Positions 6,029-58,164 of a stretch of DNA of 64,000 nucleotides are shown one piece after another. The stretch covers positions 5,328 through 69,327 of the forward strand of contig JAZUAT010000007.1 in NCBI GenBank assembly GCA_045638105.1, given 5' to 3'. The DNA comes from Christensenellaceae bacterium (GTDB lineage Bacteria > Bacillota > Clostridia > Christensenellales > Borkfalkiaceae). The notes beneath the pieces are model-generated. The model was given only the letters and a program-made list of their open reading frames with translations. It searched no databases and was not told the origin of the DNA. The position numbers and the translations under genes were made by a program. The number at the start of each line of letters is the position of its first letter. The first letter of the stretch is position 1.

Positions 6029-9000
6029 ATGAACAGTTTAAAGAAAGTCTTTTTATCGTTGTTATTGATTTTATCTATAGCAACGGGATTGACGGCATGT
6101 GGAATGTTTGAAACCATGGACCCAGACCAAGGTAGCGGTGGTGGCGGACAACAACCACCTTCAACTCCTCCAACAACTATTACGTACACGCTCAATCTTA
6201 TTCCTAATAAGAGCGTTGCACTTCGTGGAGAAGTTGTTACTTTAAACGCGTACCTTCACGCAGAGGGAAAAGATGACGTGCTTGCAGATGGCGCAACGTA
6301 TTCTATCGTTGACGGCGCTTCTTACGCAACTTTAGCGGAAAACAAGCTTACCATTTTAAACACGGCAAACGCAAACTCTATAGTAAAGGTAAAAGCGAAA
6401 GTTGGCGCTACGGATTCCAACGTGGTTGAAATCAAGGTCAGCGTACCTCTTGAAAGCATTGTGGCTTCAGCAAATGGCGTTACAAACGTATTGAAAGGCT
6501 CAAGCACGGTTCTTCATAAGGAAACGTCACCAATAGGTGCAGACCTTACCGACTTTAAGTGGGAAGTAATTGAAGGCGCAAACCTTTGCTCTATTAGTGG
6601 AGACGTATTAGTTGTTAATCCAAACGCAACGGTTGGATCAATAATTAAAGTTAAAGCTGTATGCGGTGGTAAGGAAAGTAATGTTTTAGAGTATATCGTT
6701 GGATATCCGGTTACTAAAGTAACTGCTTCAGCAAACGAAGTAACTAATATATTAAAAGGCCAAAGCATTCTTTTATACAAAGAAATTTATCCTCAAGAAG
6801 CAGACAAGAGCGACTTTAAATGGGAAATTGTTGAAGGTTCAAACCTTTGCTCTATCAACGGCGACTTATTGCTTGTTAAACCAAGCGCTGTAACAGGCTC
6901 AATTATAAAAGTTAAAGCAACTTGTGGCGGTCAAGAAAGTGAAGTTTTAGAATTTATGGTTGGTTACTACGTTGAAAGCGTAAGCGCAAGTGCAAACGGT
7001 ATAACTAATATAAAGAGAGGCGAAAGCGTAACTTTATATAAAGAAATTCTTCCAAAAGAAGCTGATACTGACGACTTCAAGTGGGAAGTAGTAGAAGGCG
7101 CAGGTTTATTTACAATCGCTGGCGATACTTTACTTGTTAAGGCAAATGCAACCGTTGGTGCAAAAATTAAAGTAAAAGCGGTTTGCGGTGGTAAAGAAAG
7201 TGAAGCCCTTGAATTTATCGTTGGCTACCCTGTTGAAAGTATAACTGCTAGTGCAAATGGTGTAACAAATATTATAAAAGGCACTAATATTCCTTTAAGC
7301 AAACAAATTTTACCAACAAATGCAGATATAGACGACTTCAAGTGGGAAATTGTTGAAGGTGCAGGCGCTTGCTTTGTAAACGGAGATAATTTATACGTAA
7401 ACGCAACGGCTACAACGGGCACAATCATTAAAGTTAAAGCAGTTTGTGGCGGTCAAGAAAGTGAAGTTTTAGAATTTATGGTTGGTTACTACGTTGAAAG
7501 CGTAACTGCTAGTGCTAGCGGTGTAACTAATATAAAGAGAGGCGAAAGCATTACTTTATATAAAGAAATTCTTCCAAAAGAAGCTGACACTGATGACTTT
7601 AAATGGGAAGTAGTTGAAGGCGAAGGCTTGTTTACAATTACAGGCGACACGTTGTTTGTTAAATCAACTGCAACCGTTGGTGCAAAAATTAAAGTAAAAG
7701 CGGTTTGCGGTGGTAAAGAAAGTGAAGCCCTTGAATTTATCGTTGGCTATCCTGTAGAAAGTATAAAAGCAACTGCTGGCGGTGTAACAAATATTATAAA
7801 AGGCACTAATATTCCTTTAAGTAAAGAAATTTTACCAACAAATGCAGATATAGACGATTTCAAGTGGGAAATTGTTGAAGGTGCAGGCGCATGCTTTGTA
7901 AACGGAGATAATTTACACGTAAACGCAACGGCTACAACAGGCACAATCATTAAAGTTAAAGCAGTTTGTGGCGGTAAAGAAAGTGAAGTTTTAGAATTTA
8001 TGGTTGGTTACTACGTTGAAAGCGTAACTGCTAGTGCAAACGGCGTAACTAATATTTTGAAAGGCGAAAGCGTAACTTTATATAAAGAAATTCTTCCAAA
8101 AGAAGCCGACACTGACGACTTTAAGTGGGAAATTTTAGAAGGCGCAACAATTTGCTCTATTAACGGCGATAACTTATTTGTAAATTCAACTGCAAAAACT
8201 GGCGACGTTATTAAAGTTAAAGCAACTTGTGGCGGTCAAGAAAGTGACGAATTTGAATTAATTGTTGGCTACCCTCTTAAATCAATAAGCGTTGAAGTTG
8301 GTGGTTCAACTAACGTTCCAAGGGGCGAAACACGTGAGTTAACGGTTACTTTAGACCCTGTCAACACAACAGAAGGCGACTATAAGTGGGAAATTTTAGA
8401 AGGCGCGGATTACTGCACTATCATAGATAACGTTTTAACCGTAAGTGAATTTGCTCCATTAGATGCAGAAATTACGTTTAAAGCAGTTGGCGTTAAAGAA
8501 AGTTCAATTATAACGATTGTTGTAACAAATGCAATTGAGAGCCTTTCTTTAACAACAAGCGCCCCTCAAATTTTAACTCACGGTGCAAATTATCCATTAC
8601 AACTTGTTGCAAGCCCTAAAGACGTAAGCACAAAAGCAGTTGAGTGGGTTGTTTCTAATAGCGACTATGCGTACGTTTCAAACAATACTTTATACGTATA
8701 CAATAACGTTCCACACGGTGCAGAACTTGAAGTTTATGCAAAGAGTGGTAACGTTGAAAGTCAAAAACTTGAGTTTAACGTTGGCGTTGCGCTTAAAGAA
8801 TTAGAATTAGAACTTAACGGCGCAGTTAACGTATTAAACGGCAAGTCTATTACGTTTACGGTTACTAAAAACCCTGCAGACGCAACAAACGGCGAATACG
8901 AAGTAGTATTTGTTAGCGGTCAAGATAATTGCGTATTAGTAGGAAATACTATAACTATTAAAGACGAAGCAACTATCGGCGAAAAAATCATCTTTAAAGT

Positions 9001-12000
9001 AGTTGCAACAAATATAGCAGGCATTGAAAGTGGCGAGGTTGAAATTATAGTAGGTATTCCTGTTGAAGAGTTTACTATTAGTTTAACTGCTCCTGCAATA
9101 TTAACTCAAGGTCAATATTACCCTGTTGAAATTAATGTAACTCCTGCGAACGCAACTTACAAGAACGTAACTTGGGTAGTTTCTAAAAGTGCGTACGCGT
9201 ACGTTTCTAACAATTTATTATTTGTAAGGGAAAGCGTTCCTCACGGCGCAACGTTTAAAGTTTCCGCTATTATTGACGGCAAAGAAAGTTCAAACAGCCT
9301 TATTTATCAAGTAGGTGTTGCAATAAATTCTATTGCGGTTTCTACAAACGTTAAAAACGTAATTCAAGGTCAAACGGCAACGTTAACTGCAACTATTAAT
9401 CAAGGCGCAACTGAAGGTTATAGCTGGGTTATTACTCAAGGCAGTGAATATGCAAGCATTTCTAACGCAATGTTATTTGTTAACGAGGGCGTAGAAACAG
9501 GCACAATAATCAAAGTTAGAGCAGTAAGTGAAAGTGGTAACGTTAAAAGTACTGAACTTGAATTTATTGTAGGTATTCCTTTAACGGCGTTAGAGTTAGA
9601 ACGTAACGGCGCAGTTAACGTATTAAATGGTAACACTATTACGTTTGCTGTTACTAAAAAACCAGCAAACACAACAAACGGCGAATATAGTGTAGAATTT
9701 GTTAGCGGACAAGACTACTGCGTATTGTCAGGCAATTCTATAACTATTAAAGAAGATGCTCCTATCGGCGAAGAAATTATCTTTAAAGTAGTTGCAACAA
9801 ATGCTACGGGCATTGAAAGTGACACCGTAAAAATTATAGTTGGTATTCCTGTTGTTAGTCTTTCTATTAGTTCAACTGCTCCTAAAATATTAACTCATGG
9901 CGCAAGTTATCCTATAACTTTAACTACAGACCCAGAAGACGCAACTTACAAAAACGTAGAATGGTTTGTTTCTAATAAAGACTATGCGTACGTTTCAAAC
10001 AACATGTTATTTGTTACAAACGCAATTCCACACGGAGCAACGTTTGATGTTTATGCAAAAATTGGCGAAAAAGAAAGTAACGTTCTTTCTTACCAAGTAG
10101 GCGTAAAAATCAACTCTATTACAATTGAAACAAGTGCAACAAGTGTTAAAAAAGGCAATACGGCTTCGTTAACTGCAACTCTTAACGACGGCGCAACCGA
10201 AGGCTATAACTGGGTTATCACTCAAGGCAACGAATACGCAAGCATTTCAAACAACACTTTATCAGTAAAAGAAAAAGCAGAGACAGGCGCAATAATCAAA
10301 GTTAAAGCAGTAAGTGCAAGTGGTGAAGCTTCAAGTGATGAAATAGAAATAGTTATTGCTGCTACTGATATGGAAATATTAGAAAACACTTACTATCTTG
10401 TTCTTTCTTTTGACTATGCTGATTTAGATAAAAACGGCAAAACTAACCCAGTATTAGAAGCGGAAGTTTACAACCGTTTAGGTACTGAAATTAAAGATAA
10501 AAACGTAATATTTGAATTGCATAATGGTAGCGAAGCATTTGTTGGCATTGAAAAAGTTGGCAACAGCTGTCGCTTTACAGAATTAAAAGCGCACGGCACA
10601 GCGTACCTTAACGCTAAAATTGAAGGTTTAGGTGTTGTAGAAACCGTTGAATTAAACGTTATTGTTCCGCCAGACGTAATTTATCTTCCAGAAGTATTTG
10701 CGGAAAATCCAAACTTCACTTACGTTTACTCTATGGAAAATCCACTTAACCAAGAAGCGGAAAAACTTCCATTTGTAGCGTACGCAGTAACAGCTACAGC
10801 TTGTGACGATATCGTTTACTCGTTTACTCATGAAGACGGAACTACTGATAATGACGTTGCTATCTATAACTATGAAACAGGCACAATAGAGTTCCTTAAA
10901 ACAGGTTTAGTTACGGTAACTGCTTTATCAAATTCAGGCAGTAGAATTGAAACAAAAGCATCTTATAAGTTTAACATTAACAAAGGCTTTAACGTTTATT
11001 CGTTTGAACACGCTAGCCAAGTTACAAGCAACAGCGGAGATTATAAAAACAATAAATACAATGGTGAAGAAATTAACTTTGTAGCCCTTGAAAAAATTGT
11101 TGGTTATAATTTTGAAAACGCAAATTATAATTACGGCTACGCATTTGTTCCACAAGTTGCATTAAAGAGCCAAGCAGAACAAAGAGGCAACATAGATTCG
11201 TATAGTGAAAATATGACTCATGATGAAAAGGTCGCGGCATACGCATCACTCCGCAATACTATGAGCAGTTCAAATAACAGAATTATTGCCGACACTAAGA
11301 ACTTACACATAAACGGCAACCAACACGCTGTTGACGCTTCTAACTTATACGTTCCAACCGATACGGAAATTGAAAGATTCCGACAAATTTTTGGCTCTGA
11401 TTGGTTTGCTCACGGTGGTATAATTTCGGCAGAACCATATTCGCTTAAAAAGATAACGGGCGACGTTAATTCAAAAGTAACGTTCTCTGTAAGAATTTAT
11501 GACCTTGAAGTAATAGGTAACGCTCCTATGTCTTTAGCTAATAAAGAAGATGCTTCAAAAACGGTATGGGGTGTATATCTTCATGGTATTAACGTTGGTG
11601 ATATTGATAGCGGTCCTAACGCTAAATATTACACGGAACTTAAAAACGTAACTGCTTCAGCAGCTAAGAATGCTATTAACATTGTTGGCGCGGTTGGCAA
11701 TAGCGTTTTTGAAAACGTTTACGTTCACAACTGCTATCAAAACGGCATTCAAGCAAAATCTTCAATTTTAACAATCAAGAACTTTAAAATTGGTGCATGC
11801 GGTGCAACGGGTATAGAACTTGTGCCAGACGGTTCAACTAAAGCAGGTCTTAACAGCGACCAAAAGCAAACAATTACTTTTGAAGGCACTATTGACGCTG
11901 AAGGAAACATTCACGCAACAACTACGCCTTATATGATTGCATATAATGATGGTGCGGTTCCTAAAATTATTAGTGCTTCTATTCTATTTAACCAACTTAC

Positions 12001-12265
12001 AGATGAACAAAAATCTCACGTGATTACAAGTGATAGCAAAATTAGTTTAGCAGTATTTATTCTTGATTATGGTGTAATGGGTGGCGATTCAAACGGTAGC
12101 CAAGCAATTTACGCGGCATATCAACAAGGCGGAATTATAGATGCAACGGAAATAAAAGGCATTGATACAACGCATCAATTTATAAATTTAAAAGTTTTTG
12201 CTGGGCAAGACATGCCATATGGCAATGCGCTTTTATACAACCTTAACTATGGTAAAACTGCATAA
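6029..12265 (+). CDS. Giant surface lipoprotein (2078 aa) with ~20 tandem Ig-like (Big_2-type) modules and a C-terminal beta-helix-like region. Putative adhesin or glycan-binding protein.
   Basis: Signal peptide plus lipobox (LSIATGLTAC|G). Reiterated modules carry the conserved 'DFKWE(I/V)VEG' and 'KVKA(V/T)CGG(K/Q)ESEVLEF(M/I)VGY' motifs. The C-terminal part (NAINIVGAVGNSVFENVYVHNCYQNGIQAKSS…) resembles right-handed parallel beta-helix / pectate-lyase-like repeats. Confidence 0.6.
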   Translation: MNSLKKVFLSLLLILSIATGLTACGMFETMDPDQGSGGGGQQPPSTPPTTITYTLNLIPNKSVALRGEVVTLNAYLHAEGKDDVLADGATYSIVDGASYATLAENKLTILNTANANSIVKVKAKVGATDSNVVEIKVSVPLESIVASANGVTNVLKGSSTVLHKETSPIGADLTDFKWEVIEGANLCSISGDVLVVNPNATVGSIIKVKAVCGGKESNVLEYIVGYPVTKVTASANEVTNILKGQSILLYKEIYPQEADKSDFKWEIVEGSNLCSINGDLLLVKPSAVTGSIIKVKATCGGQESEVLEFMVGYYVESVSASANGITNIKRGESVTLYKEILPKEADTDDFKWEVVEGAGLFTIAGDTLLVKANATVGAKIKVKAVCGGKESEALEFIVGYPVESITASANGVTNIIKGTNIPLSKQILPTNADIDDFKWEIVEGAGACFVNGDNLYVNATATTGTIIKVKAVCGGQESEVLEFMVGYYVESVTASASGVTNIKRGESITLYKEILPKEADTDDFKWEVVEGEGLFTITGDTLFVKSTATVGAKIKVKAVCGGKESEALEFIVGYPVESIKATAGGVTNIIKGTNIPLSKEILPTNADIDDFKWEIVEGAGACFVNGDNLHVNATATTGTIIKVKAVCGGKESEVLEFMVGYYVESVTASANGVTNILKGESVTLYKEILPKEADTDDFKWEILEGATICSINGDNLFVNSTAKTGDVIKVKATCGGQESDEFELIVGYPLKSISVEVGGSTNVPRGETRELTVTLDPVNTTEGDYKWEILEGADYCTIIDNVLTVSEFAPLDAEITFKAVGVKESSIITIVVTNAIESLSLTTSAPQILTHGANYPLQLVASPKDVSTKAVEWVVSNSDYAYVSNNTLYVYNNVPHGAELEVYAKSGNVESQKLEFNVGVALKELELELNGAVNVLNGKSITFTVTKNPADATNGEYEVVFVSGQDNCVLVGNTITIKDEATIGEKIIFKVVATNIAGIESGEVEIIVGIPVEEFTISLTAPAILTQGQYYPVEINVTPANATYKNVTWVVSKSAYAYVSNNLLFVRESVPHGATFKVSAIIDGKESSNSLIYQVGVAINSIAVSTNVKNVIQGQTATLTATINQGATEGYSWVITQGSEYASISNAMLFVNEGVETGTIIKVRAVSESGNVKSTELEFIVGIPLTALELERNGAVNVLNGNTITFAVTKKPANTTNGEYSVEFVSGQDYCVLSGNSITIKEDAPIGEEIIFKVVATNATGIESDTVKIIVGIPVVSLSISSTAPKILTHGASYPITLTTDPEDATYKNVEWFVSNKDYAYVSNNMLFVTNAIPHGATFDVYAKIGEKESNVLSYQVGVKINSITIETSATSVKKGNTASLTATLNDGATEGYNWVITQGNEYASISNNTLSVKEKAETGAIIKVKAVSASGEASSDEIEIVIAATDMEILENTYYLVLSFDYADLDKNGKTNPVLEAEVYNRLGTEIKDKNVIFELHNGSEAFVGIEKVGNSCRFTELKAHGTAYLNAKIEGLGVVETVELNVIVPPDVIYLPEVFAENPNFTYVYSMENPLNQEAEKLPFVAYAVTATACDDIVYSFTHEDGTTDNDVAIYNYETGTIEFLKTGLVTVTALSNSGSRIETKASYKFNINKGFNVYSFEHASQVTSNSGDYKNNKYNGEEINFVALEKIVGYNFENANYNYGYAFVPQVALKSQAEQRGNIDSYSENMTHDEKVAAYASLRNTMSSSNNRIIADTKNLHINGNQHAVDASNLYVPTDTEIERFRQIFGSDWFAHGGIISAEPYSLKKITGDVNSKVTFSVRIYDLEVIGNAPMSLANKEDASKTVWGVYLHGINVGDIDSGPNAKYYTELKNVTASAAKNAINIVGAVGNSVFENVYVHNCYQNGIQAKSSILTIKNFKIGACGATGIELVPDGSTKAGLNSDQKQTITFEGTIDAEGNIHATTTPYMIAYNDGAVPKIISASILFNQLTDEQKSHVITSDSKISLAVFILDYGVMGGDSNGSQAIYAAYQQGGIIDATEIKGIDTTHQFINLKVFAGQDMPYGNALLYNLNYGKTA
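6950..8290 (+). repeat. Near-identical 522-bp tandem duplication inside the giant lipoprotein gene. It has about 2.5 copies, and each copy spans two 87-aa Ig-like modules.
   Basis: Direct comparison of 6950-7472, 7472-7994 and 7994 onward shows >90% nucleotide identity (e.g. 'aaagttaaagcagtttgtggcggtcaagaaagtgaagttttagaatttatggttggttactacgttgaaagcgt' recurs). The spurious minus-strand ORFs 7225-7428 and 7747-7950 are offset by exactly 522 bp. Confidence 0.85.
8520..10340 (+). repeat. Second family of module repeats (A-B-A'-C-B'-A''-C' arrangement) with a ~780-bp higher-order nucleotide repeat
   Basis: Blocks starting 'SLSLTTSAPQILTHGANYP', 'LELELNGAVNVLNGKSITF' and 'INSIAVSTNVKNVIQGQTA' each recur 2-3 times with high DNA identity (e.g. 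8800-8940 vs 9590-9730). Confidence 0.7.
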
Positions 12266-13458: not shown

Positions 13459-13902
13459 ATGAAAGTTATAATGTTAAAAGACGTGAAAAACGTTGGTAAA
13501 GTTGGCGAAATTAAAGAGGTTAGTGACGGATATGCAAGAAACTGCCTAATAAAGCAAGGTCTTGCAGAAGAAGCAACTGCAGTTAAAATAAATAGCTTAA
13601 ATATTAAAAAGGGTGCGCAAGATTTTCACAAGCGTGAAGAAATTAAAGCACTTACGGAAGAAGCAAAAAAACTTAATGGCAATACCGTTGTAATAAAGGT
13701 AAAAAGTGGAGATAACGGCAAAATGTTTGGCTCTGTTACAAGCAAAGAAATTGCCGATGCTATTAACGAACTTGGCTTTAACGTTGATAAAAAGAAGGTT
13801 TTGTTAAAAGATTCCATTAAAACGTTTGGTATACACGCAGTTGACGTAAAGTTTTTACCAGAAGTTGTTGCAAAAATTAAAGTTAGCGTAGAAAACGCAT
13901 AA
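13459..13902 (+). CDS. rplI: 50S ribosomal protein L9
   Basis: N-terminus '[36 protein letters not shown]' matches the L9 consensus. Length 147 aa. Confidence 0.9.
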
Positions 13903-13904
13903 GA

Positions 13905-13930
13905 AAAAGCCGTTAATACGGCTTTTTTTG
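13905..13930 (+). terminator. rplI rho-independent terminator
   Basis: agccgt-taat-acggct followed by ttttttt. Confidence 0.75.
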
Positions 13931-13983
13931 TCTTTTTTAGCCTATTAAAAATTAAAACGCTTATGATAAAACTTTTATATTGA

Positions 13984-14012
13984 CAAATATAATATAAATT
14001 AGTATAATATAT
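13984..14012 (+). promoter_or_regulatory. Consensus sigma-A promoter (TTGACA, 17-nt spacer, TATAAT) for the 14080 gene
   Basis: ttgaca at 13984-13989, 17-nt spacer, tataat at 14007-14012. RBS 'aaggag' at 14066. Confidence 0.55.
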
Positions 14013-14079
14013 AATACTAATTTTAATTTATAGCATAACAAAACTTTATTATAAGTTTGCCTTTTGGCAAGGAGTATGT

Positions 14080-17000
14080 ATGGGAAATTTTACAAGAAGA
14101 GTTATAGCCTTTATAATGGGCATGGTGGTAATGCTTGTAACGTTGCTTGGCGGTACTGCCGGCGCTATGTATTGGGCGTTTAAAAACCTTTCTTTATCAA
14201 AATTGGGGGTAATGGAAGAAGACGCGTCTGGTATAGCTGATGCCACTGTTGAAGATTTGGTTGCACTTGTTTTATTAGTTCAAAGTGACCCAGAATCTTT
14301 TACCTTTGCAAAACTTGAAGAACAAGGTATTGACGTTTTTCAAATTTTGGAATCTTTAGGGCTTGACTTGTCTAAAGCAGACAAAACAGATTATGATAGC
14401 TTAAAAAATATTAGTCCGTTCTTGCTTTTCTCTAGTGAGGGTTTATATCAAATAAGTTTTTCAACGGTATTTGCATTTATACCTAAGGGGGAAGACGGAA
14501 CGTATCCATTATTTTCTGAAGGTGCGAGAGACGCGCTTCGTGGATATTCGCTTGGCTATTTGTTGGAAACTGACAATATTACGGGAGAAATGCGTTTATT
14601 TAAAGAACTTAGCACTTTAAAAATCGGCTCGTTATTCCCTTCAACGTTTACTGAAACGTACGATTCTGTTAACGGCGAGTACGTTTACCTTGCAGATAAT
14701 CCTGCTATTGAAAAATTTGGTAACATTAAAGCTTCTTTCTTAACAAAAGCGGTTTCTGATACATACGTGTTTGATATTGGTCAAGAATTGCACGAGGGCG
14801 ACCTTGAAGAAATTGGCAAATTAGAAGTTGCAGATTTCTTATCTGATTTAATTGCCGGCGATGATGAAGATGCAAAAGCCCAAATTAAACAAACATTTGC
14901 GTTACTTGGCAATTTATTAGTAAAAGACTTGTTTGCGTATGATGAAGAATTGGGCTCTTATGCTTTTGATATGGAAGCAATATTCTCAACTTTATCAATA
15001 GGCGGATTCTTAGGTTACGTTGGTTGTACGGAAAGTGAAGATTGTCCAATTCACGAAGGCGTTGGTTGTGATGGCGAGTGGTACCTTGCTTGTATAGACG
15101 ACGTTGATTGCCCTGTACACGGTAACGACGGTTGCTTAAACGTAGACGAATATAAAAAGGTTGCAGGCGAAACTGCTGAAGAATTAATAATGTTAAACCT
15201 TGCTAACCTTAACATAAACAATATTATTGGTGGCGAGTTTGCAATAACTGATATTATTGAAGGCGTTTATCTTGGACACTCTCTTGGCTACAAAATTAAA
15301 GAAGACGCTCCTAACGGATATTGTGATAAAGATTGTGAAACTACTGAATTGCACGATGAACACAATTTCTATTGGGTAGATGCTAACGATGAATATGTTG
15401 GCGAACTTTTCAATGACGTTTCTAATACTCCACTTGTAAATGCTATTAATGGCGAGGGTATTGATTTAGAGGGCATTGTAAACGATGCAAAGCTCGGCGA
15501 ATTGCTTGGCAAATATAATAAAGACGGCGATTGGTACGATGATAGCGACTGCACAATTCCTACCGCTAATGAAACGGCAATGGAAAAAATATTGCTTTCT
15601 ATTTATGATAAAACGATGACGGAAATCACAAGTGACGGCGGTATTGATTTAGGCGTAATGCTTGAAGGCATCAAGATGGGCGAACTTATGGGCTACACTT
15701 ACGATAACGGCGTTTGGTACGATGGTAACGAAGCGTTAGACCTTAACGAATTGAACAAATCAATTTACGATATGGAAGTTTCTAAGCTCGTTAATGGCGA
15801 TATGGAATTTGATGACGTATTAGACGGCTTACTTCTTGGCGAACTTATGGGCTACACTTATGATAACGATAACGGCGTTTGGTATGACGGCAACGCTGTG
15901 TTAGACCTTAGCGAATTAGACAAGGCGTTATATGAAATTGACGTTGCAGATATTCTTAACGGCGATTTTGAAGTTAACGACGTGTTAGATGAAATGCTTC
16001 TTGGCGAACTTATGGGCTACACTTATGAAAGTGGCGTTTGGTACGACGGCACAGAGGCTTTAACTCTTAACGAATTAGATAAAGCGTTATACGAAGTTGC
16101 AGTTGCAGATATTCTTAACGGCGACTTTGAAGTTAACGACGTGTTAGACGGCTTACTTCTTGGCGAACTTATGGGTTACACAAACGATAACGGCGCTTGG
16201 TACGATGAAAATGATGCCTTATTAACTCTTAACGCATTTAACAAAGCATTATACAAAGTTGAAGTTTCAAAAATGCTTAACGGCGATATGGAAATCGGCG
16301 ATATTTTAGACGGGCTTAAGATGGGCGAACTTATGGGCTATGAAATTAAGGCTGAAGTCGGCTACTGCGACGCAGGCTGTGAACTTACTGAATCACACAA
16401 AGAACACAACTTCTATTGGGTTGATGAAAACGGCGCTTCTTTAAAGCTTAACGAGTTAGACAAAGCTTTATATAGAATGGAAGTTTCTAAAATAATTGAC
16501 GGCAACTTTGAAATAGGCGACATATTAAACGGACTTATGATGGGCGAACTTATGGGTTACACTTACGATAACGGCGTTTGGTATGATGAAGAAAATAGCG
16601 AAGTAACTCTCAACGCATTAGACAAAGCGCTTTATAAAGTAGACGTTTCAAAGATTGTTGACGGCAAATTTGTAGTTGACGATATTTTAGACGGGCTTAA
16701 GATGGGCGAACTTATGGGCTATACTTACGATAACGGCGCTTGGTACAAAGACGTAGAATGCAATACTAAAGTAGAAAATTCAACTGCTATGGATAAAATT
16801 ATGGTTAGCATCTACGGCAAAACTATGGATGACGTTAAAGCTGGGCTTAAGTTAGAAGAAATGCTTGACGGAATTATGCTTGGCGAACTTATGGGCTACA
16901 CCTTAGGCGAAAAAGACGGATATTGCAAAGCCGATTGCGACAGCGAAGAAGTAGGGCATAAACACGATTATTACTGGCTTAAAGACGGCGTAGAACAAAA

Positions 17001-18156
17001 CTTTACAAAGTTTGATAAAACTTTATATGAAACTTTAGTTTCCGAACTTGTTACTGGCGATAAAAACTTTAAGAGTGTTTTAGGCGACCTTTACGTTGGC
17101 GAACTTATGGGTAACACTTACGATAAAGATAACGGCGTTTGGTATAAAGAAAATGGCGAAGAGTTAGAACTTGGCATTTTAGATAAAACTATTTACGAAG
17201 TTCCTGTTACAGACATTTTAAATAACAAAGTTGACTTTAAGGACGTTTTAGGCGACCTTTACGTTGGTCAGCTAATGAACTATACTGGTGGCGTTGGTAC
17301 TTGGGAAAATAACGGCGTTCCTGTAAGCAATTTAAACAAAACGGTTGCAGATATTAAACTTGAAGAAATCTTTAGCGGAGAAATTAACTTTAAGTCAAAA
17401 ATTGATAACTTAACTTTAGGTGACGTTATTGATATGAATAGTGCTGACACTCCTACAATCTTAAAACTTTTAAAAGATACAAAAGTTAGCCAAATCTCTT
17501 CTAAGATGAACGAATTAGAACTTGGCGAAGTTATGGGCTATACAAAATGCTCTAAAGACGCAAGTTGTAAAGTTCACGAAAACGGCATTGGTTGTGACGG
17601 CAAGTGGTATAGAGAAAACAAAATTAAATGCTCGAAAGATGCAGATTGTGAAATTCACGAAAACGGCATTGGTTGTGACGGCGAGTGGTATATAGAAAAC
17701 AAATCTGTGGACGGTCTTAACGCAAAAATTGCGAACTACACGTTCAAGAAATTTGCAGACGAAGGCTTTAACCCAAACGAATTTACTTTAGGCGACGTTA
17801 TTAAAGATGATGATCAATACGAAGAAGGTTCTATATTCTATCTTTTAGACATTAGCGATATGGAAGATATTGATGGCGTTGCACCAGAACGTCAAGACAT
17901 TGAAAAGCGCAAGAGCATTTCTGTTAGCGAAGTTTCAACACGCACTAAATCAGGCGTACAAAATGCAAAATTAAAAGACTTAAAGAATTGTGGCGTGTTT
18001 ACTTTATCTATTGAAGATTGCGAAACACTTGACAAAGCGTTTATGTTTGGATACGACACATTGCATAAAATACCTGCGGATAAAGTAAATTGGCAAGAAC
18101 TTACTCTTAACGAATTTATTCAATGCGTTATAGCAATGCTCCCTACAGGTGTTTAA
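14080..18156 (+). CDS. Membrane-anchored, highly acidic repeat protein (1358 aa) with reiterated Cys/His-containing motifs. Function unknown.
   Basis: N-terminal TM helix (VIAFIMGMVVMLVTLLGGTAGAMYWAF). About 12 tandem ~53-aa repeats of the form 'LLGELMGYTYDNGVWYDG…LNELDKALYEV…ILNGDFEVNDVLDG'. Interspersed 'GYC(D/K)xxC(E/D)…H(D/K)EHNFYWVD' motifs occur four times, and 'CSKDAxC(K/E)(V/I)HENGIGCDG(K/E)WY' occurs twice, with a similar block near residue 300. Confidence 0.6.
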   Translation: MGNFTRRVIAFIMGMVVMLVTLLGGTAGAMYWAFKNLSLSKLGVMEEDASGIADATVEDLVALVLLVQSDPESFTFAKLEEQGIDVFQILESLGLDLSKADKTDYDSLKNISPFLLFSSEGLYQISFSTVFAFIPKGEDGTYPLFSEGARDALRGYSLGYLLETDNITGEMRLFKELSTLKIGSLFPSTFTETYDSVNGEYVYLADNPAIEKFGNIKASFLTKAVSDTYVFDIGQELHEGDLEEIGKLEVADFLSDLIAGDDEDAKAQIKQTFALLGNLLVKDLFAYDEELGSYAFDMEAIFSTLSIGGFLGYVGCTESEDCPIHEGVGCDGEWYLACIDDVDCPVHGNDGCLNVDEYKKVAGETAEELIMLNLANLNINNIIGGEFAITDIIEGVYLGHSLGYKIKEDAPNGYCDKDCETTELHDEHNFYWVDANDEYVGELFNDVSNTPLVNAINGEGIDLEGIVNDAKLGELLGKYNKDGDWYDDSDCTIPTANETAMEKILLSIYDKTMTEITSDGGIDLGVMLEGIKMGELMGYTYDNGVWYDGNEALDLNELNKSIYDMEVSKLVNGDMEFDDVLDGLLLGELMGYTYDNDNGVWYDGNAVLDLSELDKALYEIDVADILNGDFEVNDVLDEMLLGELMGYTYESGVWYDGTEALTLNELDKALYEVAVADILNGDFEVNDVLDGLLLGELMGYTNDNGAWYDENDALLTLNAFNKALYKVEVSKMLNGDMEIGDILDGLKMGELMGYEIKAEVGYCDAGCELTESHKEHNFYWVDENGASLKLNELDKALYRMEVSKIIDGNFEIGDILNGLMMGELMGYTYDNGVWYDEENSEVTLNALDKALYKVDVSKIVDGKFVVDDILDGLKMGELMGYTYDNGAWYKDVECNTKVENSTAMDKIMVSIYGKTMDDVKAGLKLEEMLDGIMLGELMGYTLGEKDGYCKADCDSEEVGHKHDYYWLKDGVEQNFTKFDKTLYETLVSELVTGDKNFKSVLGDLYVGELMGNTYDKDNGVWYKENGEELELGILDKTIYEVPVTDILNNKVDFKDVLGDLYVGQLMNYTGGVGTWENNGVPVSNLNKTVADIKLEEIFSGEINFKSKIDNLTLGDVIDMNSADTPTILKLLKDTKVSQISSKMNELELGEVMGYTKCSKDASCKVHENGIGCDGKWYRENKIKCSKDADCEIHENGIGCDGEWYIENKSVDGLNAKIANYTFKKFADEGFNPNEFTLGDVIKDDDQYEEGSIFYLLDISDMEDIDGVAPERQDIEKRKSISVSEVSTRTKSGVQNAKLKDLKNCGVFTLSIEDCETLDKAFMFGYDTLHKIPADKVNWQELTLNEFIQCVIAMLPTGV
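15650..17300 (+). repeat. ~159-bp (53-aa) tandem coding repeats inside the acidic repeat protein gene
   Basis: 'cttggcgaacttatgggctacacttacga' recurs at ~15678, 15838, 15997, 16160, 16540, 16710, and further on. Confidence 0.8.
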
Positions 18157-21585: not shown

Positions 21586-22224
21586 TTAAGGCTTGTTGTT
21601 TTCAACGTACTCTTTAAGCGAAAGTCCGTTTAAAAAACGTGCGTCTTCTTTTATAATATCAATATTGCTACCGCCGTAAATCGCTTTAAAAGCGTTTGCT
21701 AAATAGTCTGGGCGGAGCGTGTCGTTACCAAATTTAAGCGTTGCAATAAGATTTTCATTTTCAAAATTTAGAGAAACTATTTTATTGCAAACTTCTCTTT
21801 TATTGCCTTTTTTGTCTTCAACGTAGAATTCTTGCTTTGATAAAACTTCACTAACGTCAAAGTAGTTTAAACCGCTAATAACGTAAGTGGCGGTTGTAAC
21901 GTCTGAAGCAACGCCAAGCCTTTTTTGAGTGTTATAACTTTCTTCACACTTAATTCCGTCAGGAGCAAAGTTGTTAAAAAGTTGTTTAAAAGTTTCGGCG
22001 TTCTCATCGCTTTCAATTAGGCAATATTCACTTTTACTTTTTAATCCAAGTGCAATAGGCGAACTCATAAAAACAAGCATATGTGGGTTAAATCCTTGCG
22101 AATAGCCTACTTTTACGTTCATACGCCTTATAATTTTTGCAAAATGTTTAAGCATATCAAGGTGCGGAATAAATTCGGCGCCGTTTAATTTTGAATATTT
22201 AATAACTATCATTTTATATCGCAC
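21586..22224 (-). CDS. TIGR03936/DUF2344-family protein, a partner of the TIGR03960 radical SAM protein
   Basis: '…EFIPHLDMLKHFAKIIRRMNV…' is typical of the DUF2344 family. It overlaps the upstream radical-SAM gene by 16 nt. Confidence 0.6.
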   Translation of the reverse strand: MRYKMIVIKYSKLNGAEFIPHLDMLKHFAKIIRRMNVKVGYSQGFNPHMLVFMSSPIALGLKSKSEYCLIESDENAETFKQLFNNFAPDGIKCEESYNTQKRLGVASDVTTATYVISGLNYFDVSEVLSKQEFYVEDKKGNKREVCNKIVSLNFENENLIATLKFGNDTLRPDYLANAFKAIYGGSNIDIIKEDARFLNGLSLKEYVENNKP

Positions 22225-23975
22225 CTACCTTGTAAACCACAGCCTTTACAGCCCGTTTGGCATCCGCCCGTAATTTTTCCGTCGTATGCTTTTTGCCTTT
22301 CTTTAAGTAAAAAGTTTTTAGTAACGCCAACGTCAATAAAATCCCAAGGGAGCGGAGTATTTAAGTCTTGCTCGCTCGTGTAGTCAAGTTTATTAACGCC
22401 TTCTTCTAAAAACGCTTGCTCGTAAATTTTAGGATTAAAATATTCGCACCAACTTTCAAAGAAAGAGCCTTTTTTGTATGCGTTAAGCAAAACTTTGCCA
22501 ATGCGCCTGTCGCCACGGGCTAAAACTGCTTCCATTTCTGAAAGTTCGTAATCATTCCAATTAAAAGAAACGCCTTTAATATAAAGTTTTGATTTTAGCG
22601 TTGCAATTTTTTTGTCAACCTGCTCTTTTGTTGCAAAAGGCTCCCACTCAAAAGGCGTAAACGGCTTTGGAATAAAAGTTGAAACGCTAACGTTTATTCT
22701 TAATGCACGCAAACGCTTAGGGTTTTGCGAATATATTTGTTTTATTTTTTGAACAACTTGGAAGATGCCGTCAATATCTTCGTCTGTTTCCGTAGGCAAG
22801 CCCATCATAAAATAAAGCTTTATTGCAGACGTTCCAAGGTCAAACGCTTTTTGAACTCCCGTTTCAATATCTTGTTCCGTAATATCTTTATTAATAACGT
22901 CACGCAAGCGTTGAGTACCGGCTTCGGGCGCAAACGTTAAACTGCTTTTGCGTGATTCTTGTGCGTAAAAACTTTCAAAACTATCAATTCTAAGTGAAGG
23001 AAGAGCAATGGTAGTGTACTCAGGCAACTTTGCCTTCATTTCTTTTAAAAGAGTAGAAAGTTCGCCGTAGTCACTTGTTGACAAGCTATTCATACTAACG
23101 TTTTCATAGCCCGTGTTTTTAATAAGGTCGCACGCAAGGCTTGTTAACGTATTAACGCTACGCTTTCTAACGGGTCTATATATAAATCCCGCTTGGCAAA
23201 ATCTACAACCGCGATAGCATCCGCGCATAATTTCAATAACGGCTCTATCGTGTACAACTTCAATATTTCCAACGGGTTGAAAACGTGGATATGGCGCGTT
23301 TTCAAGGTCTAAGCAAATGGCTCTTTTAACGCTATTGCCTTCAAATTTAACAATTTTTCCGTTCTCATATACGGGTTTTGTAAGGGTAGGAACGTAAACG
23401 CCCTCAATTTCACTCGCGCGTTTTAAGAACTCTTTTTTGTCTTTAACTTTAAGTTTAAGCTCGGCAAGTTGGCGCATTGAAATTTCGCCGTCCCCAATTA
23501 CAAAAAGGTCAAAAAAGTCAGCAAGAGGTTCTGGGTTAACTGCGCAAGGTCCACCGCCTTGAATAATAGGGAAAGAATCGTCACGCTCGCTTGCCAAAAG
23601 TGGAATGCCAGCTAAATCAAGCATATACAAAATGGTTGTATAACTCATTTCGTATTGAAGCGAAAAGCCTATCATATCAAATTCTTTAAGCGGTTTTTTT
23701 AAGCCGAGCGAGTAAAGCGGAATGCCGTTTTCTTTAATCGCCGTACCAAAGTCTGGCCAAGGGGCGTAGCACCTGTCTGCTGAAGCGCCGTCAACGTTAT
23801 TAATAACGTCTTGCACAATGCGTATGCCTAAGTTGCTCATTGCAACTTCGTAAACGTCAGGAAAGCAAATGCAGTAGTTGAATTTGTCTTCTTTTATTTT
23901 AGGTGCGCCGTATTCGCCACCAATGTAGCGCGCGGGCTTTTCAACCGTTTTTAAAATTTCGTTTAAAGTTTTCAT
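22209..23975 (-). CDS. TIGR03960-family B12-binding-domain radical SAM protein of unknown function
   Basis: N-terminal 'KPARYIGGEYG'. The CxxxCxxC radical-SAM motif appears as 'GCYRGCRFCQAG'. 588 aa. Confidence 0.7.
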   Translation of the reverse strand: MKTLNEILKTVEKPARYIGGEYGAPKIKEDKFNYCICFPDVYEVAMSNLGIRIVQDVINNVDGASADRCYAPWPDFGTAIKENGIPLYSLGLKKPLKEFDMIGFSLQYEMSYTTILYMLDLAGIPLLASERDDSFPIIQGGGPCAVNPEPLADFFDLFVIGDGEISMRQLAELKLKVKDKKEFLKRASEIEGVYVPTLTKPVYENGKIVKFEGNSVKRAICLDLENAPYPRFQPVGNIEVVHDRAVIEIMRGCYRGCRFCQAGFIYRPVRKRSVNTLTSLACDLIKNTGYENVSMNSLSTSDYGELSTLLKEMKAKLPEYTTIALPSLRIDSFESFYAQESRKSSLTFAPEAGTQRLRDVINKDITEQDIETGVQKAFDLGTSAIKLYFMMGLPTETDEDIDGIFQVVQKIKQIYSQNPKRLRALRINVSVSTFIPKPFTPFEWEPFATKEQVDKKIATLKSKLYIKGVSFNWNDYELSEMEAVLARGDRRIGKVLLNAYKKGSFFESWCEYFNPKIYEQAFLEEGVNKLDYTSEQDLNTPLPWDFIDVGVTKNFLLKERQKAYDGKITGGCQTGCKGCGLQGRCDIK

Positions 23976-34389: not shown

Positions 34390-34547
34390 AATGCCCCCTT
34401 TTTTAATAATTATAATAAAAGCGTAGTATACGTGTCAATAAAAAATAATAAAAAAAGACATAATAAAAATCAAAACGACTATTTACAAAGCGTTAAATTT
34501 CATTTATAATGTAATTATTGTAAAAATAATTTTATTAAGGAGAAATT

Positions 34548-58088: not shown

Positions 58089-58164
58089 TGGGGCGTCGCC
58101 AAGCGGTAAGGCTACGGACTCTGACTCCGTCACTTCGTTGGTTCAAATCCTACCACCCCAGCCA
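58089..58164 (+). tRNA. tRNA-Gln (anticodon CUG)
   Basis: Cloverleaf with D-arm 'GCCAAGCGGTAAGGC', anticodon loop 'CTCTGAC' (anticodon CUG), and T-arm 'GGTTCAAATCC'. The 3' end 'ACCCCAGCCA' closely resembles bacterial tRNA-Gln. Confidence 0.8.

Follow-up and report, generated by a model that had tools for sequence, protein, structure and literature searches.

Several described bacterial proteins share features with the protein encoded at positions 14080–18156 (+ strand) of the window analysed here, a 64,000-nucleotide stretch of contig JAZUAT010000007.1 from a Christensenellaceae bacterium. This protein, P0001, is a highly acidic repeat protein of 1358 residues with a predicted N-terminal membrane anchor, and an identical copy of it is present in the NCBI protein collection. 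Ebh from Staphylococcus aureus, which is composed of FIVAR-GA repeats, resembles P0001 in its single membrane anchor, its rod of small helical repeats, its large length variation and its envelope location (predicted in the case of P0001), whereas the anchor of Ebh is C-terminal, Ebh is without Cys/His sites and the unit of P0001 bears a β-hairpin; the two are connected by neither a sequence match nor a structural match in the PDB. The S-layer and coat proteins RsaA, SbsB and SlpA are likewise acidic, with a size of about 150 kDa, a very strong conserved promoter and a conserved chromosomal position. However, P0001 would be anchored by an N-terminal membrane helix instead of an SLH or CWB2 domain, and its predicted structure is helical and not Ig-like or a β-roll. 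The pneumococcal histidine-triad (Pht) proteins and Aap/SasG (G5-E) are also Firmicute surface proteins with repeated zinc-binding elements, which are putative in P0001, along an elongated body, but Aap/SasG binds zinc between molecules via β-rich repeats, and P0001 is homologous to neither Pht nor Aap/SasG. The Pht histidine triad itself was rejected as a candidate, as no HxxHxH motif occurs among the 13 His residues of P0001.

Two further comparisons concern the hairpins of P0001. Zinc knuckles and zinc fingers share with it CCHC and CCHH ligand sets that brace a small hairpin, with Cys and His interchangeable at a ligand position, whereas the sites in P0001 are optional inserts in a probably extracellular repeat and not nucleic-acid-binding domains. 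The CW_binding_1 repeats share a recurring aromatic β-hairpin with a G-x-W-Y core, but these repeats are about 20 residues long, consist of the hairpin only and follow each other directly, whereas P0001 carries one hairpin per helical unit of about 53 residues and gave no match to the corresponding hidden Markov model at E ≤ 10.

Scans of P0001 against Pfam and NCBIfam at E ≤ 10 returned noise only, and no Pfam domain was found in ten distant relatives. Sequence searches of the PDB with P0001, with a profile of its N-terminal domain and with a profile of its repeat gave no meaningful match, and structural comparison of the P0001 models with the PDB gave no match. Literature searches on surface, repeat or giant proteins and S-layers of Christensenellaceae turned up nothing on this family, and a paper on the EB1010 peptide showed no link to it. 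An initial sequence-only reading had been unable to assign the repeat to a known family, and this stood, with no dockerin, EF-hand or S-layer module matched. P0001 therefore appears to represent an undescribed, order-restricted family, broadly of the bacterial surface repeat protein kind, to which neither known families nor solved folds offer a detectable relative.

Membrane anchor, repeat array and predicted fold

The ATG-initiated open reading frame (ORF) of P0001 contains one strongly hydrophobic segment, aa 8–34 (14101–14181, +), which follows MGNFTRR, has a Kyte–Doolittle mean of 2.36 over 19 residues and falls within a helix spanning aa 2–36 in the AlphaFold model. No second segment resembling a transmembrane helix was found in the hydropathy scan of P0001, and the sequence-only description of a real gene encoding a membrane-anchored protein with a single N-terminal helix agrees with both the ORF and the hydropathy. 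The segment may serve as a signal-anchor or be a signal sequence that looks uncleaved; its predicted orientation is N-in/C-out, and a candidate signal-peptidase site lies between AGA and MY. The charges flanking the anchor in 133 relatives (+2.4/−0.1 in the N-flank and +1.9/−2.6 in the C-flank) imply, by the positive-inside rule, a cytoplasmic N-terminus and an external repeat array, and the bulk of P0001 is thus most likely to be located outside the cell. The sequence TRRVIAF resembles the twin-arginine translocation (Tat) motif S/T-R-R-x-F-L-K, and the RR pair is present in 86 of the 133 relatives, but the strong hydrophobicity of the h-region favours the Sec/signal recognition particle route over Tat.

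With 19.6% Asp plus Glu, 7.6% Lys plus Arg, a net charge of about −163 and a pI of 4.12, P0001 is, as had been claimed, hyper-acidic: it is the most acidic product of the 21 ORFs of the window, the others having Asp plus Glu contents of 4.5 to 15.5%. The anchor is followed by a conserved N-terminal domain (aa 35–306; 14182–14997, +), which defines the family in the profile of alignment A1, by the repeat array (aa 307–1236; 14998–17787, +) and by a conserved C-terminal helical domain (aa 1237–1358; 17788–18153, +), which emerges from the consensus of alignment A3, is modelled with a pLDDT of about 88–91 and carries the sole basic patch (EKRK). No structural match to the C-terminal domain was found in the PDB, and alignment of the repeat profile with the N-terminal domain by hhalign gave no support for the latter being composed of degenerate repeats.

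The array was delimited from the unit motifs, the DSSP assignment of the models and the DNA repeats. Counted on the motif [LMV]G[EQ]LMG[YN] ('LGELMGY'), it comprises about 16 units, most of 51–56 residues; the tandem repeats of about 53 residues proposed earlier are real, their number having been put at about 12. At the DNA level, a 23-nt sequence at the unit motif occurs nine times at three or fewer mismatches (none expected from 100 shuffles), with spacings of 159–219 nt. The shared DNA element of the sequence-only reading was thus recovered, but its regular 159-bp unit holds for a small part of the array: Tandem Repeats Finder detected a strict 159-bp array of just 3.8 copies (15679–16287, 77% matches), together with an 81-bp duplication at 17545–17703.

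Two AlphaFold2 models were considered, covering aa 1–585 (model 1, mean pLDDT 75.7) and aa 694–1358 (model 2, mean pLDDT 79.5). Both predict the same unit, in which a one-turn helix ('GELM') is followed by a β-hairpin ('TYD-NG-VWYD') and three short helices ('LNELDKALY', 'VSKILNG' and 'DDVLDG'). The suggestion that DNGVWYD and DxLDG recall calcium-binding turns found no support in this comparison: no calcium-binding family matched at E ≤ 10, and in the models DNGVWYD forms the hairpin and DDVLDG a short helix. EF-hand and dockerin repeats, with their helix-flanked 12-residue loop of the DxDxDG type, were rejected on the same grounds. Besides the standard units, the array contains one hairpin-less unit and two 'long' units with 'AMEKI'. 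Each long unit has one lone Cys in the context D-x-x-C-T/N, at aa 491 (15550–15552) and aa 894 (16759–16761); both are outside every Cys/His quartet described below, and the first position is kept in ten of 18 homologues.

Cys/His quartets and their exchange

Three kinds of hairpin cassette occur in the units: plain, C2H2 (C-x3-C-x5/6-H-x1/2-H, within 'GYCxxxC...HxxH/HxH..YYW') and CCHC (C-x5-C-x2-H-x4/5-C). In the models, the Cys/His modules are not separate domains but longer hairpins that take the place of the plain one, with strands still ending in aromatic 'YYW/WY'. Seven quartets, three C2H2 and four CCHC, account for 18 of the 23 Cys and ten of the 13 His residues of P0001, and the lengthened hairpins that bear them occur in five of the approximately 16 units. 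The C2H2 module, which had been reported four times, was found three times: C415, C419, H425 and H428 (15322–15363, +; C-x3-C-x5-H-x2-H), C763, C767, H773 and H776 (16366–16407, +; with low pLDDT at the loop tip in model 2) and C949, C953, H960 and H962 (16924–16965, +; C-x3-C-x6-H-x1-H). The CCHC-type block, reported twice with a similar block near residue 300, is present as four quartets in two tandem pairs, of which the first (15025–15135, +; C-x5-C-x2-H-x4-C) comprises C316, C322, H325 and C330 followed by C338, C344, H347 and C352, and the second (17548–17676, +) comprises C1157, C1163, H1166 and C1172 followed by C1184, C1190, H1193 and C1199 and is encoded by the 81-bp duplication.

In an alignment covering residues 1–585 (18 sequences), the ligands of a quartet are present or absent as a set. 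Each ligand of the C316–C330 quartet is found in 14–15 of the 18 aligned homologues, and in three the whole quartet is exchanged for a plain 'DGVWY' hairpin; the C338–C352 quartet is present in ten of the 18, and the first C2H2 quartet is kept in 14, with a CCHC cassette in its place in P0013 and P0016. In P0015 and P0016, His replaces Cys as the fourth ligand. When Cys and His residues within 12 residues of each other were grouped in 27 close relatives and compared with shuffled sequences, 83 clusters of four were obtained (44 CCHH and 38 CCHC) versus 8.3 in the shuffles, whereas there was a single cluster of three versus 29.9; 16 clusters contained eight residues, 13 of them in the order CCHCCCHC of the tandem pairs. 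A distant Cys/His-rich subgroup (P0113, P0124, P0155 and about 15 similar proteins) provides a third ligand order: it contains 33 CHHC quartets (C-x2-5-H-x-H-x3-5-C), often doubled, at the same hairpin position before a 'Y-x-F-x-W-Y' strand, and shares the same C-terminal 'GLNAK..N.T...LTIGDLID' region.

The exchange of Cys and His at a ligand position, together with the presence of His, argues against disulfides and for a zinc-type tetrahedral site. At the level of sequence, the quartets have the traits of tetrahedral Zn(Cys/His)4 sites in general, namely a conserved ligand set, tolerance of Cys/His exchange and confinement to a short stretch. The Cys/His spacing, on whose conservation in homologues the sequence-only reading had depended, is held there. 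Judged from these comparisons, the quartets behave as four-ligand metal sites, and the metal is most likely to be Zn(II). The zinc modules compared do not describe them: the classical C2H2 finger (C-x2-4-C-x12-H-x3-5-H, ββα) and the zf-CCHC knuckle (C-x2-C-x4-H-x4-C) were both rejected, as their spacings differ from those given above and neither was matched in Pfam. Heme binding was also rejected, as P0001 contains no CxxCH motif.

The cassettes are exchanged between close relatives. The orthologue P0002, which is 86% identical to P0001, aligns without gaps save at three places, where the flanks are identical; twice a plain hairpin of P0001 corresponds to a C2H2 cassette in P0002, and once the CCHC pair at 17548–17676 corresponds to a single C2H2 cassette. 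Compared with resident cassettes of their own subtype, the extra cassettes of P0002 show 73–80% identity, which marks them as related copies and not as very recent duplications. Across species, the frame 'CCHC-CCHC, C2H2, long unit ... terminal Cys/His unit, C-domain' persists around a middle part of a few to about 20 units, the classification of units being approximate. The near-invariant 20–23 nt at the unit motif would be an obvious substrate for unequal recombination or recombination of the gene-conversion type. The quartets look structural, being located at hairpin tips, and the hairpins in question can be exchanged for metal-free ones. Of the metal-binding scaffold that had been proposed, the metal sites thus find support in the behaviour of the ligands, whereas a scaffold function does not.

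The family and its proposed place in the envelope

A search of 5.8 billion proteins returned 19 proteins including P0001, with identities of 27–86%, from uncultured Clostridia or Christensenellaceae; where the sources give names, all are 'hypothetical protein'. Profile A1, built from the first 310 residues and run against 1.84 billion representatives of 50%-identity clusters, matched 210 proteins of about 800 to 6356 residues at E ≤ 0.001, of which 76 reached E ≤ 1e-30; those with a named source all derive from gut genomes of uncultured Christensenellaceae or Clostridia. P0001 matches this profile with E = 1e-130, being itself part of the alignment, and has the RR-anchor helix with 'YWAFKN' and the subsequent conserved domain of about 270 residues that characterize the members. 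The family has two defining parts, the N-terminal anchor domain and the conserved C-terminal domain, between which the repeat array is highly variable. In the giant members (more than 2300 and up to 6356 residues; L022–L030, L036–L038 and P0048–P0058), the array has few Cys/His residues and different, longer repeats, while the anchor domain and a perfect promoter are kept.

In a scan that represented each GTDB species by a single genome, 31 loci were found, every one of them in a gut metagenome-assembled genome labelled Christensenellaceae, Christensenella, Catabacter or Clostridia, the hosts being humans, yak, sheep, goat and buffalo; two records are evidently mislabelled, and some other family members are labelled 'Candidatus Borkfalkiaceae'. 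Further homologue searches returned two fragments with profile A1 and none with a relative from Christensenella sp. UBA4675 (an intact ORF). The taxonomic distribution, a point raised in the sequence-only reading, therefore comprises gut genomes of Christensenellaceae and Clostridia, and the family appears to be confined to the order Christensenellales.

Upstream of the gene, TTGACA and TATAAT are separated by 17 nt (13980–14008, +), a 12/12 match to the σ70 consensus, as had been stated. The intrinsic terminator of rplI (13902–13929, +; a 12-bp stem followed by a T run) makes the repeat-protein gene its own transcription unit in this genome, and a ribosome-binding site, AAGGAG (14069–14074, +), can be read directly 5 nt 5' of the ATG, with GGAG-type sites at the equivalent position in related loci. 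A perfect 12/12 promoter is located 40–130 nt upstream of the family gene in 15 of 26 loci, including those of relatives with 27–33% identity in the N-terminal domain; in most loci without it, rplI ends less than 200 nt upstream. The family gene adjoins rplI and/or rpsF-ssb-rpsR, on either side, across N-terminal domain identities of 27–66% (L004, L006–L021, L031 and L033–L035), and in one locus (L001) dnaN and gidB lie within 8 kb of it, which places it near the replication origin. Exact consensus promoters seem to be used for the most highly expressed genes of this organism, the rpsF operon having one of the same class. The high expression anticipated earlier is therefore plausible, and with it abundance of the protein. 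Promoter and synteny together fit a vertically inherited, highly expressed gene, and by themselves indicate no function.

We propose that P0001 forms an abundant fibre or a coat component of the envelope, extracytoplasmic and rooted in the membrane, in which some hairpins are braced by structural zinc and the hairpins are varied by recombination; we would give this explanation about an even chance of being right, the envelope role, the outside topology, the zinc and the high abundance being what we infer. The N-terminal helix would tether an elongated protein to the cytoplasmic membrane, and the acidic array would extend outward into or through the envelope. Each unit of about 53 residues would be a small helical module projecting one aromatic β-hairpin (Y-x-Y...G-x-W-Y), and, where the hairpin is lengthened, a tetrahedral metal site with four ligands, most likely for Zn(II), would staple its tip. 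In this obligate anaerobe the metal would serve as a structural brace, a redox-independent substitute for a disulfide, and not as cargo. Exchange of hairpin cassettes and whole units through the near-invariant DNA at the unit motif would allow the exposed hairpins to vary quickly on a conserved frame.

Several points weigh against this explanation. The AlphaFold models contain no metal, and their confidence drops right at the ligand-bearing tips of the C2H2 loops and at one CCHC site. Zinc knuckles of the Cys/His type occur far more often in cytoplasmic than in exported proteins. Pfam, NCBIfam and inspection of the translation revealed in P0001 neither SLH, CWB2 or LPXTG nor any further domain known for wall anchoring or lattice formation. 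Christensenella minuta was not among the matches of the single genome scan. The synteny with ribosomal genes may reflect mere shared ancestry within one order, and perfect promoters, with five in 64 kb, are no great rarity in this genome.

One alternative retains the fibre but assigns it to ligand binding: as an adhesin, P0001 would bind glycans, mucus, microbes or wall polymers through its aromatic hairpins, and shuffling would tune the specificity or evade phages or antibodies. The elongated repeat architecture, with relatives of up to 6356 residues, and the quick exchange of hairpins on a conserved frame would suit such a role, and G-Y-x-x-x-x-G-x-W-Y resembles, though by resemblance only, the aromatic hairpins of choline- and glucan-binding repeats. 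However, neither Pfam CW_binding nor any adhesin family was matched, a protein so negatively charged would be ill suited to bind acidic mucins, and a conserved position beside rplI or rpsF-ssb-rpsR across the order, combined with a promoter of the housekeeping class, is unusual for accessory adhesins; we consider this reading unlikely. We regard as quite unlikely a metal-handling role, in which the quartets would capture or buffer zinc for uptake, as has been suggested for the pneumococcal histidine-triad proteins, and the polyanionic body would bind Ca2+/Mg2+ at the cell surface, as a protein counterpart of teichoic acids. Seven four-ligand sites, a net charge of about −163, a probable location outside the cell and a strong promoter are all compatible with it. 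In close relatives, however, one and the same unit may carry a quartet or a metal-free hairpin, and the quartets are almost lacking in the giants, so that a metal-handling function would be dispensable, and four-ligand Cys/His sites bind zinc too tightly for easy hand-over. Moreover, no zinc-uptake genes of the adcA/znuA type are adjacent in the window or the loci examined, and no calcium-binding motif family was matched.

If the array faced the cytoplasm as a membrane-tethered scaffold, with zinc knuckles touching ribosomal or replication components, the persistent linkage to rplI and rpsF-ssb-rpsR would be accounted for, but the charge topology and the pI contradict this arrangement, which we consider very improbable. 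An extracellular electron-transfer or redox-sensing fibre, in which the quartets would hold [2Fe–2S] or another redox cofactor, is the explanation to which we attach hardly any likelihood. Sets of three Cys and one His or of two Cys and two His can ligate 2Fe–2S, examples being mitoNEET and Rieske proteins; 'CDG' occurs in the CCHC cassette, just as in the CDGSH motif, and the habitat is anoxic. The CDGSH iron–sulfur domain (C-x-C-x2-(S/T)-x3-P-x-C-D-G-(S/A/T)-H) was nevertheless rejected, as its ligand order is C-C-C-H where that of P0001 is C-C-H-C, with only 'CDG' in common; order and spacing are also unlike those of Rieske motifs, and neither is matched in Pfam. The cassettes are dispensable, and the strongly hydrophobic Sec-type anchor implies export in an unfolded state, which is incompatible with cytoplasmic insertion of Fe–S clusters.

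Christensenellaceae rank among the gut taxa with the most consistent ties to host genetics and leanness. If the envelope fibre proposed here is abundant and directed to the surface, it would, conserved as it is throughout the order, form the main interface of Christensenellales with the host, phages and neighbours, and be a natural clade marker or antigen. With respect to protein science, the repeat is without a Pfam or PDB match and, if the proposal is correct, would provide a rare case of modular zinc-type knuckles outside the cell, while the natural series of relatives with and without a given cassette offers a direct test of the metal's structural role. Most Christensenellaceae are uncultured, with an atypical cell envelope that is uncharacterized at the molecular level (PMC11448272). 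Christensenella minuta is listed with the Gram-negative-staining atypical Bacillota without lipopolysaccharide and outer-membrane genes, and the envelopes of such Bacillota are described as outer surface layers over thin peptidoglycan (PMC11448272). Speculatively, a Christensenella-type envelope leaves room for a coat component such as P0001. A further, tentative possibility is that P0001 represents a new architecture, a Christensenellales-specific, abundant, membrane-rooted fibre with a new helix-plus-hairpin fold and shuffled extracellular CCHH/CCHC/CHHC zinc-knuckle cassettes as redox-proof substitutes for disulfides, which could be a component of the outer layer of these atypically Gram-negative-staining Firmicutes.

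Neighbouring genes and other features of the window

The 5' neighbour of the repeat-protein gene is that for ribosomal protein L9 (rplI), as had been noted, and the 3' neighbour encodes an HD domain; its earlier designation as a dGTPase gene was not specifically confirmed. No paralogue of the repeat protein is present within the 64-kb window. In the 5' untranslated region, a small hairpin UUGCC-UUUU-GGCAA (14043–14070) directly adjoins the ribosome-binding site, and the sequence of its 3' arm, 'GGCAAGGAG', is found again in the close relatives L008 and L009; the entire region folds no better than shuffled sequences (z = 0.07).

The five perfect TTGACA-17/18-TATAAT promoters of the window are located at 567, 13980 and 31078 on the + strand and at 34438 and 21498 on the − strand, the last of these being upstream of rpsF-ssb-rpsR and of the same class as the promoter of the repeat gene. 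At 21586–22224 (−) lies an ORF of 212 residues whose position is like that of the DUF2344 gene beside rpsF in locus L007; it overlaps the start of an ORF of 588 residues (22209–23975, −). Two genes upstream of the repeat gene, with cysK (minus strand) and rplI in between, 6029–12265 (+) encodes a predicted lipoprotein of 2078 residues with an N-terminal 'LTAC' lipobox and many Ig-like repeats of the Big_2 type of about 95 residues; its C-terminal region of about 600 residues has no Pfam match. The sole Rfam match at the gathering threshold in the window is a tRNA gene at 58089–58161 (+).

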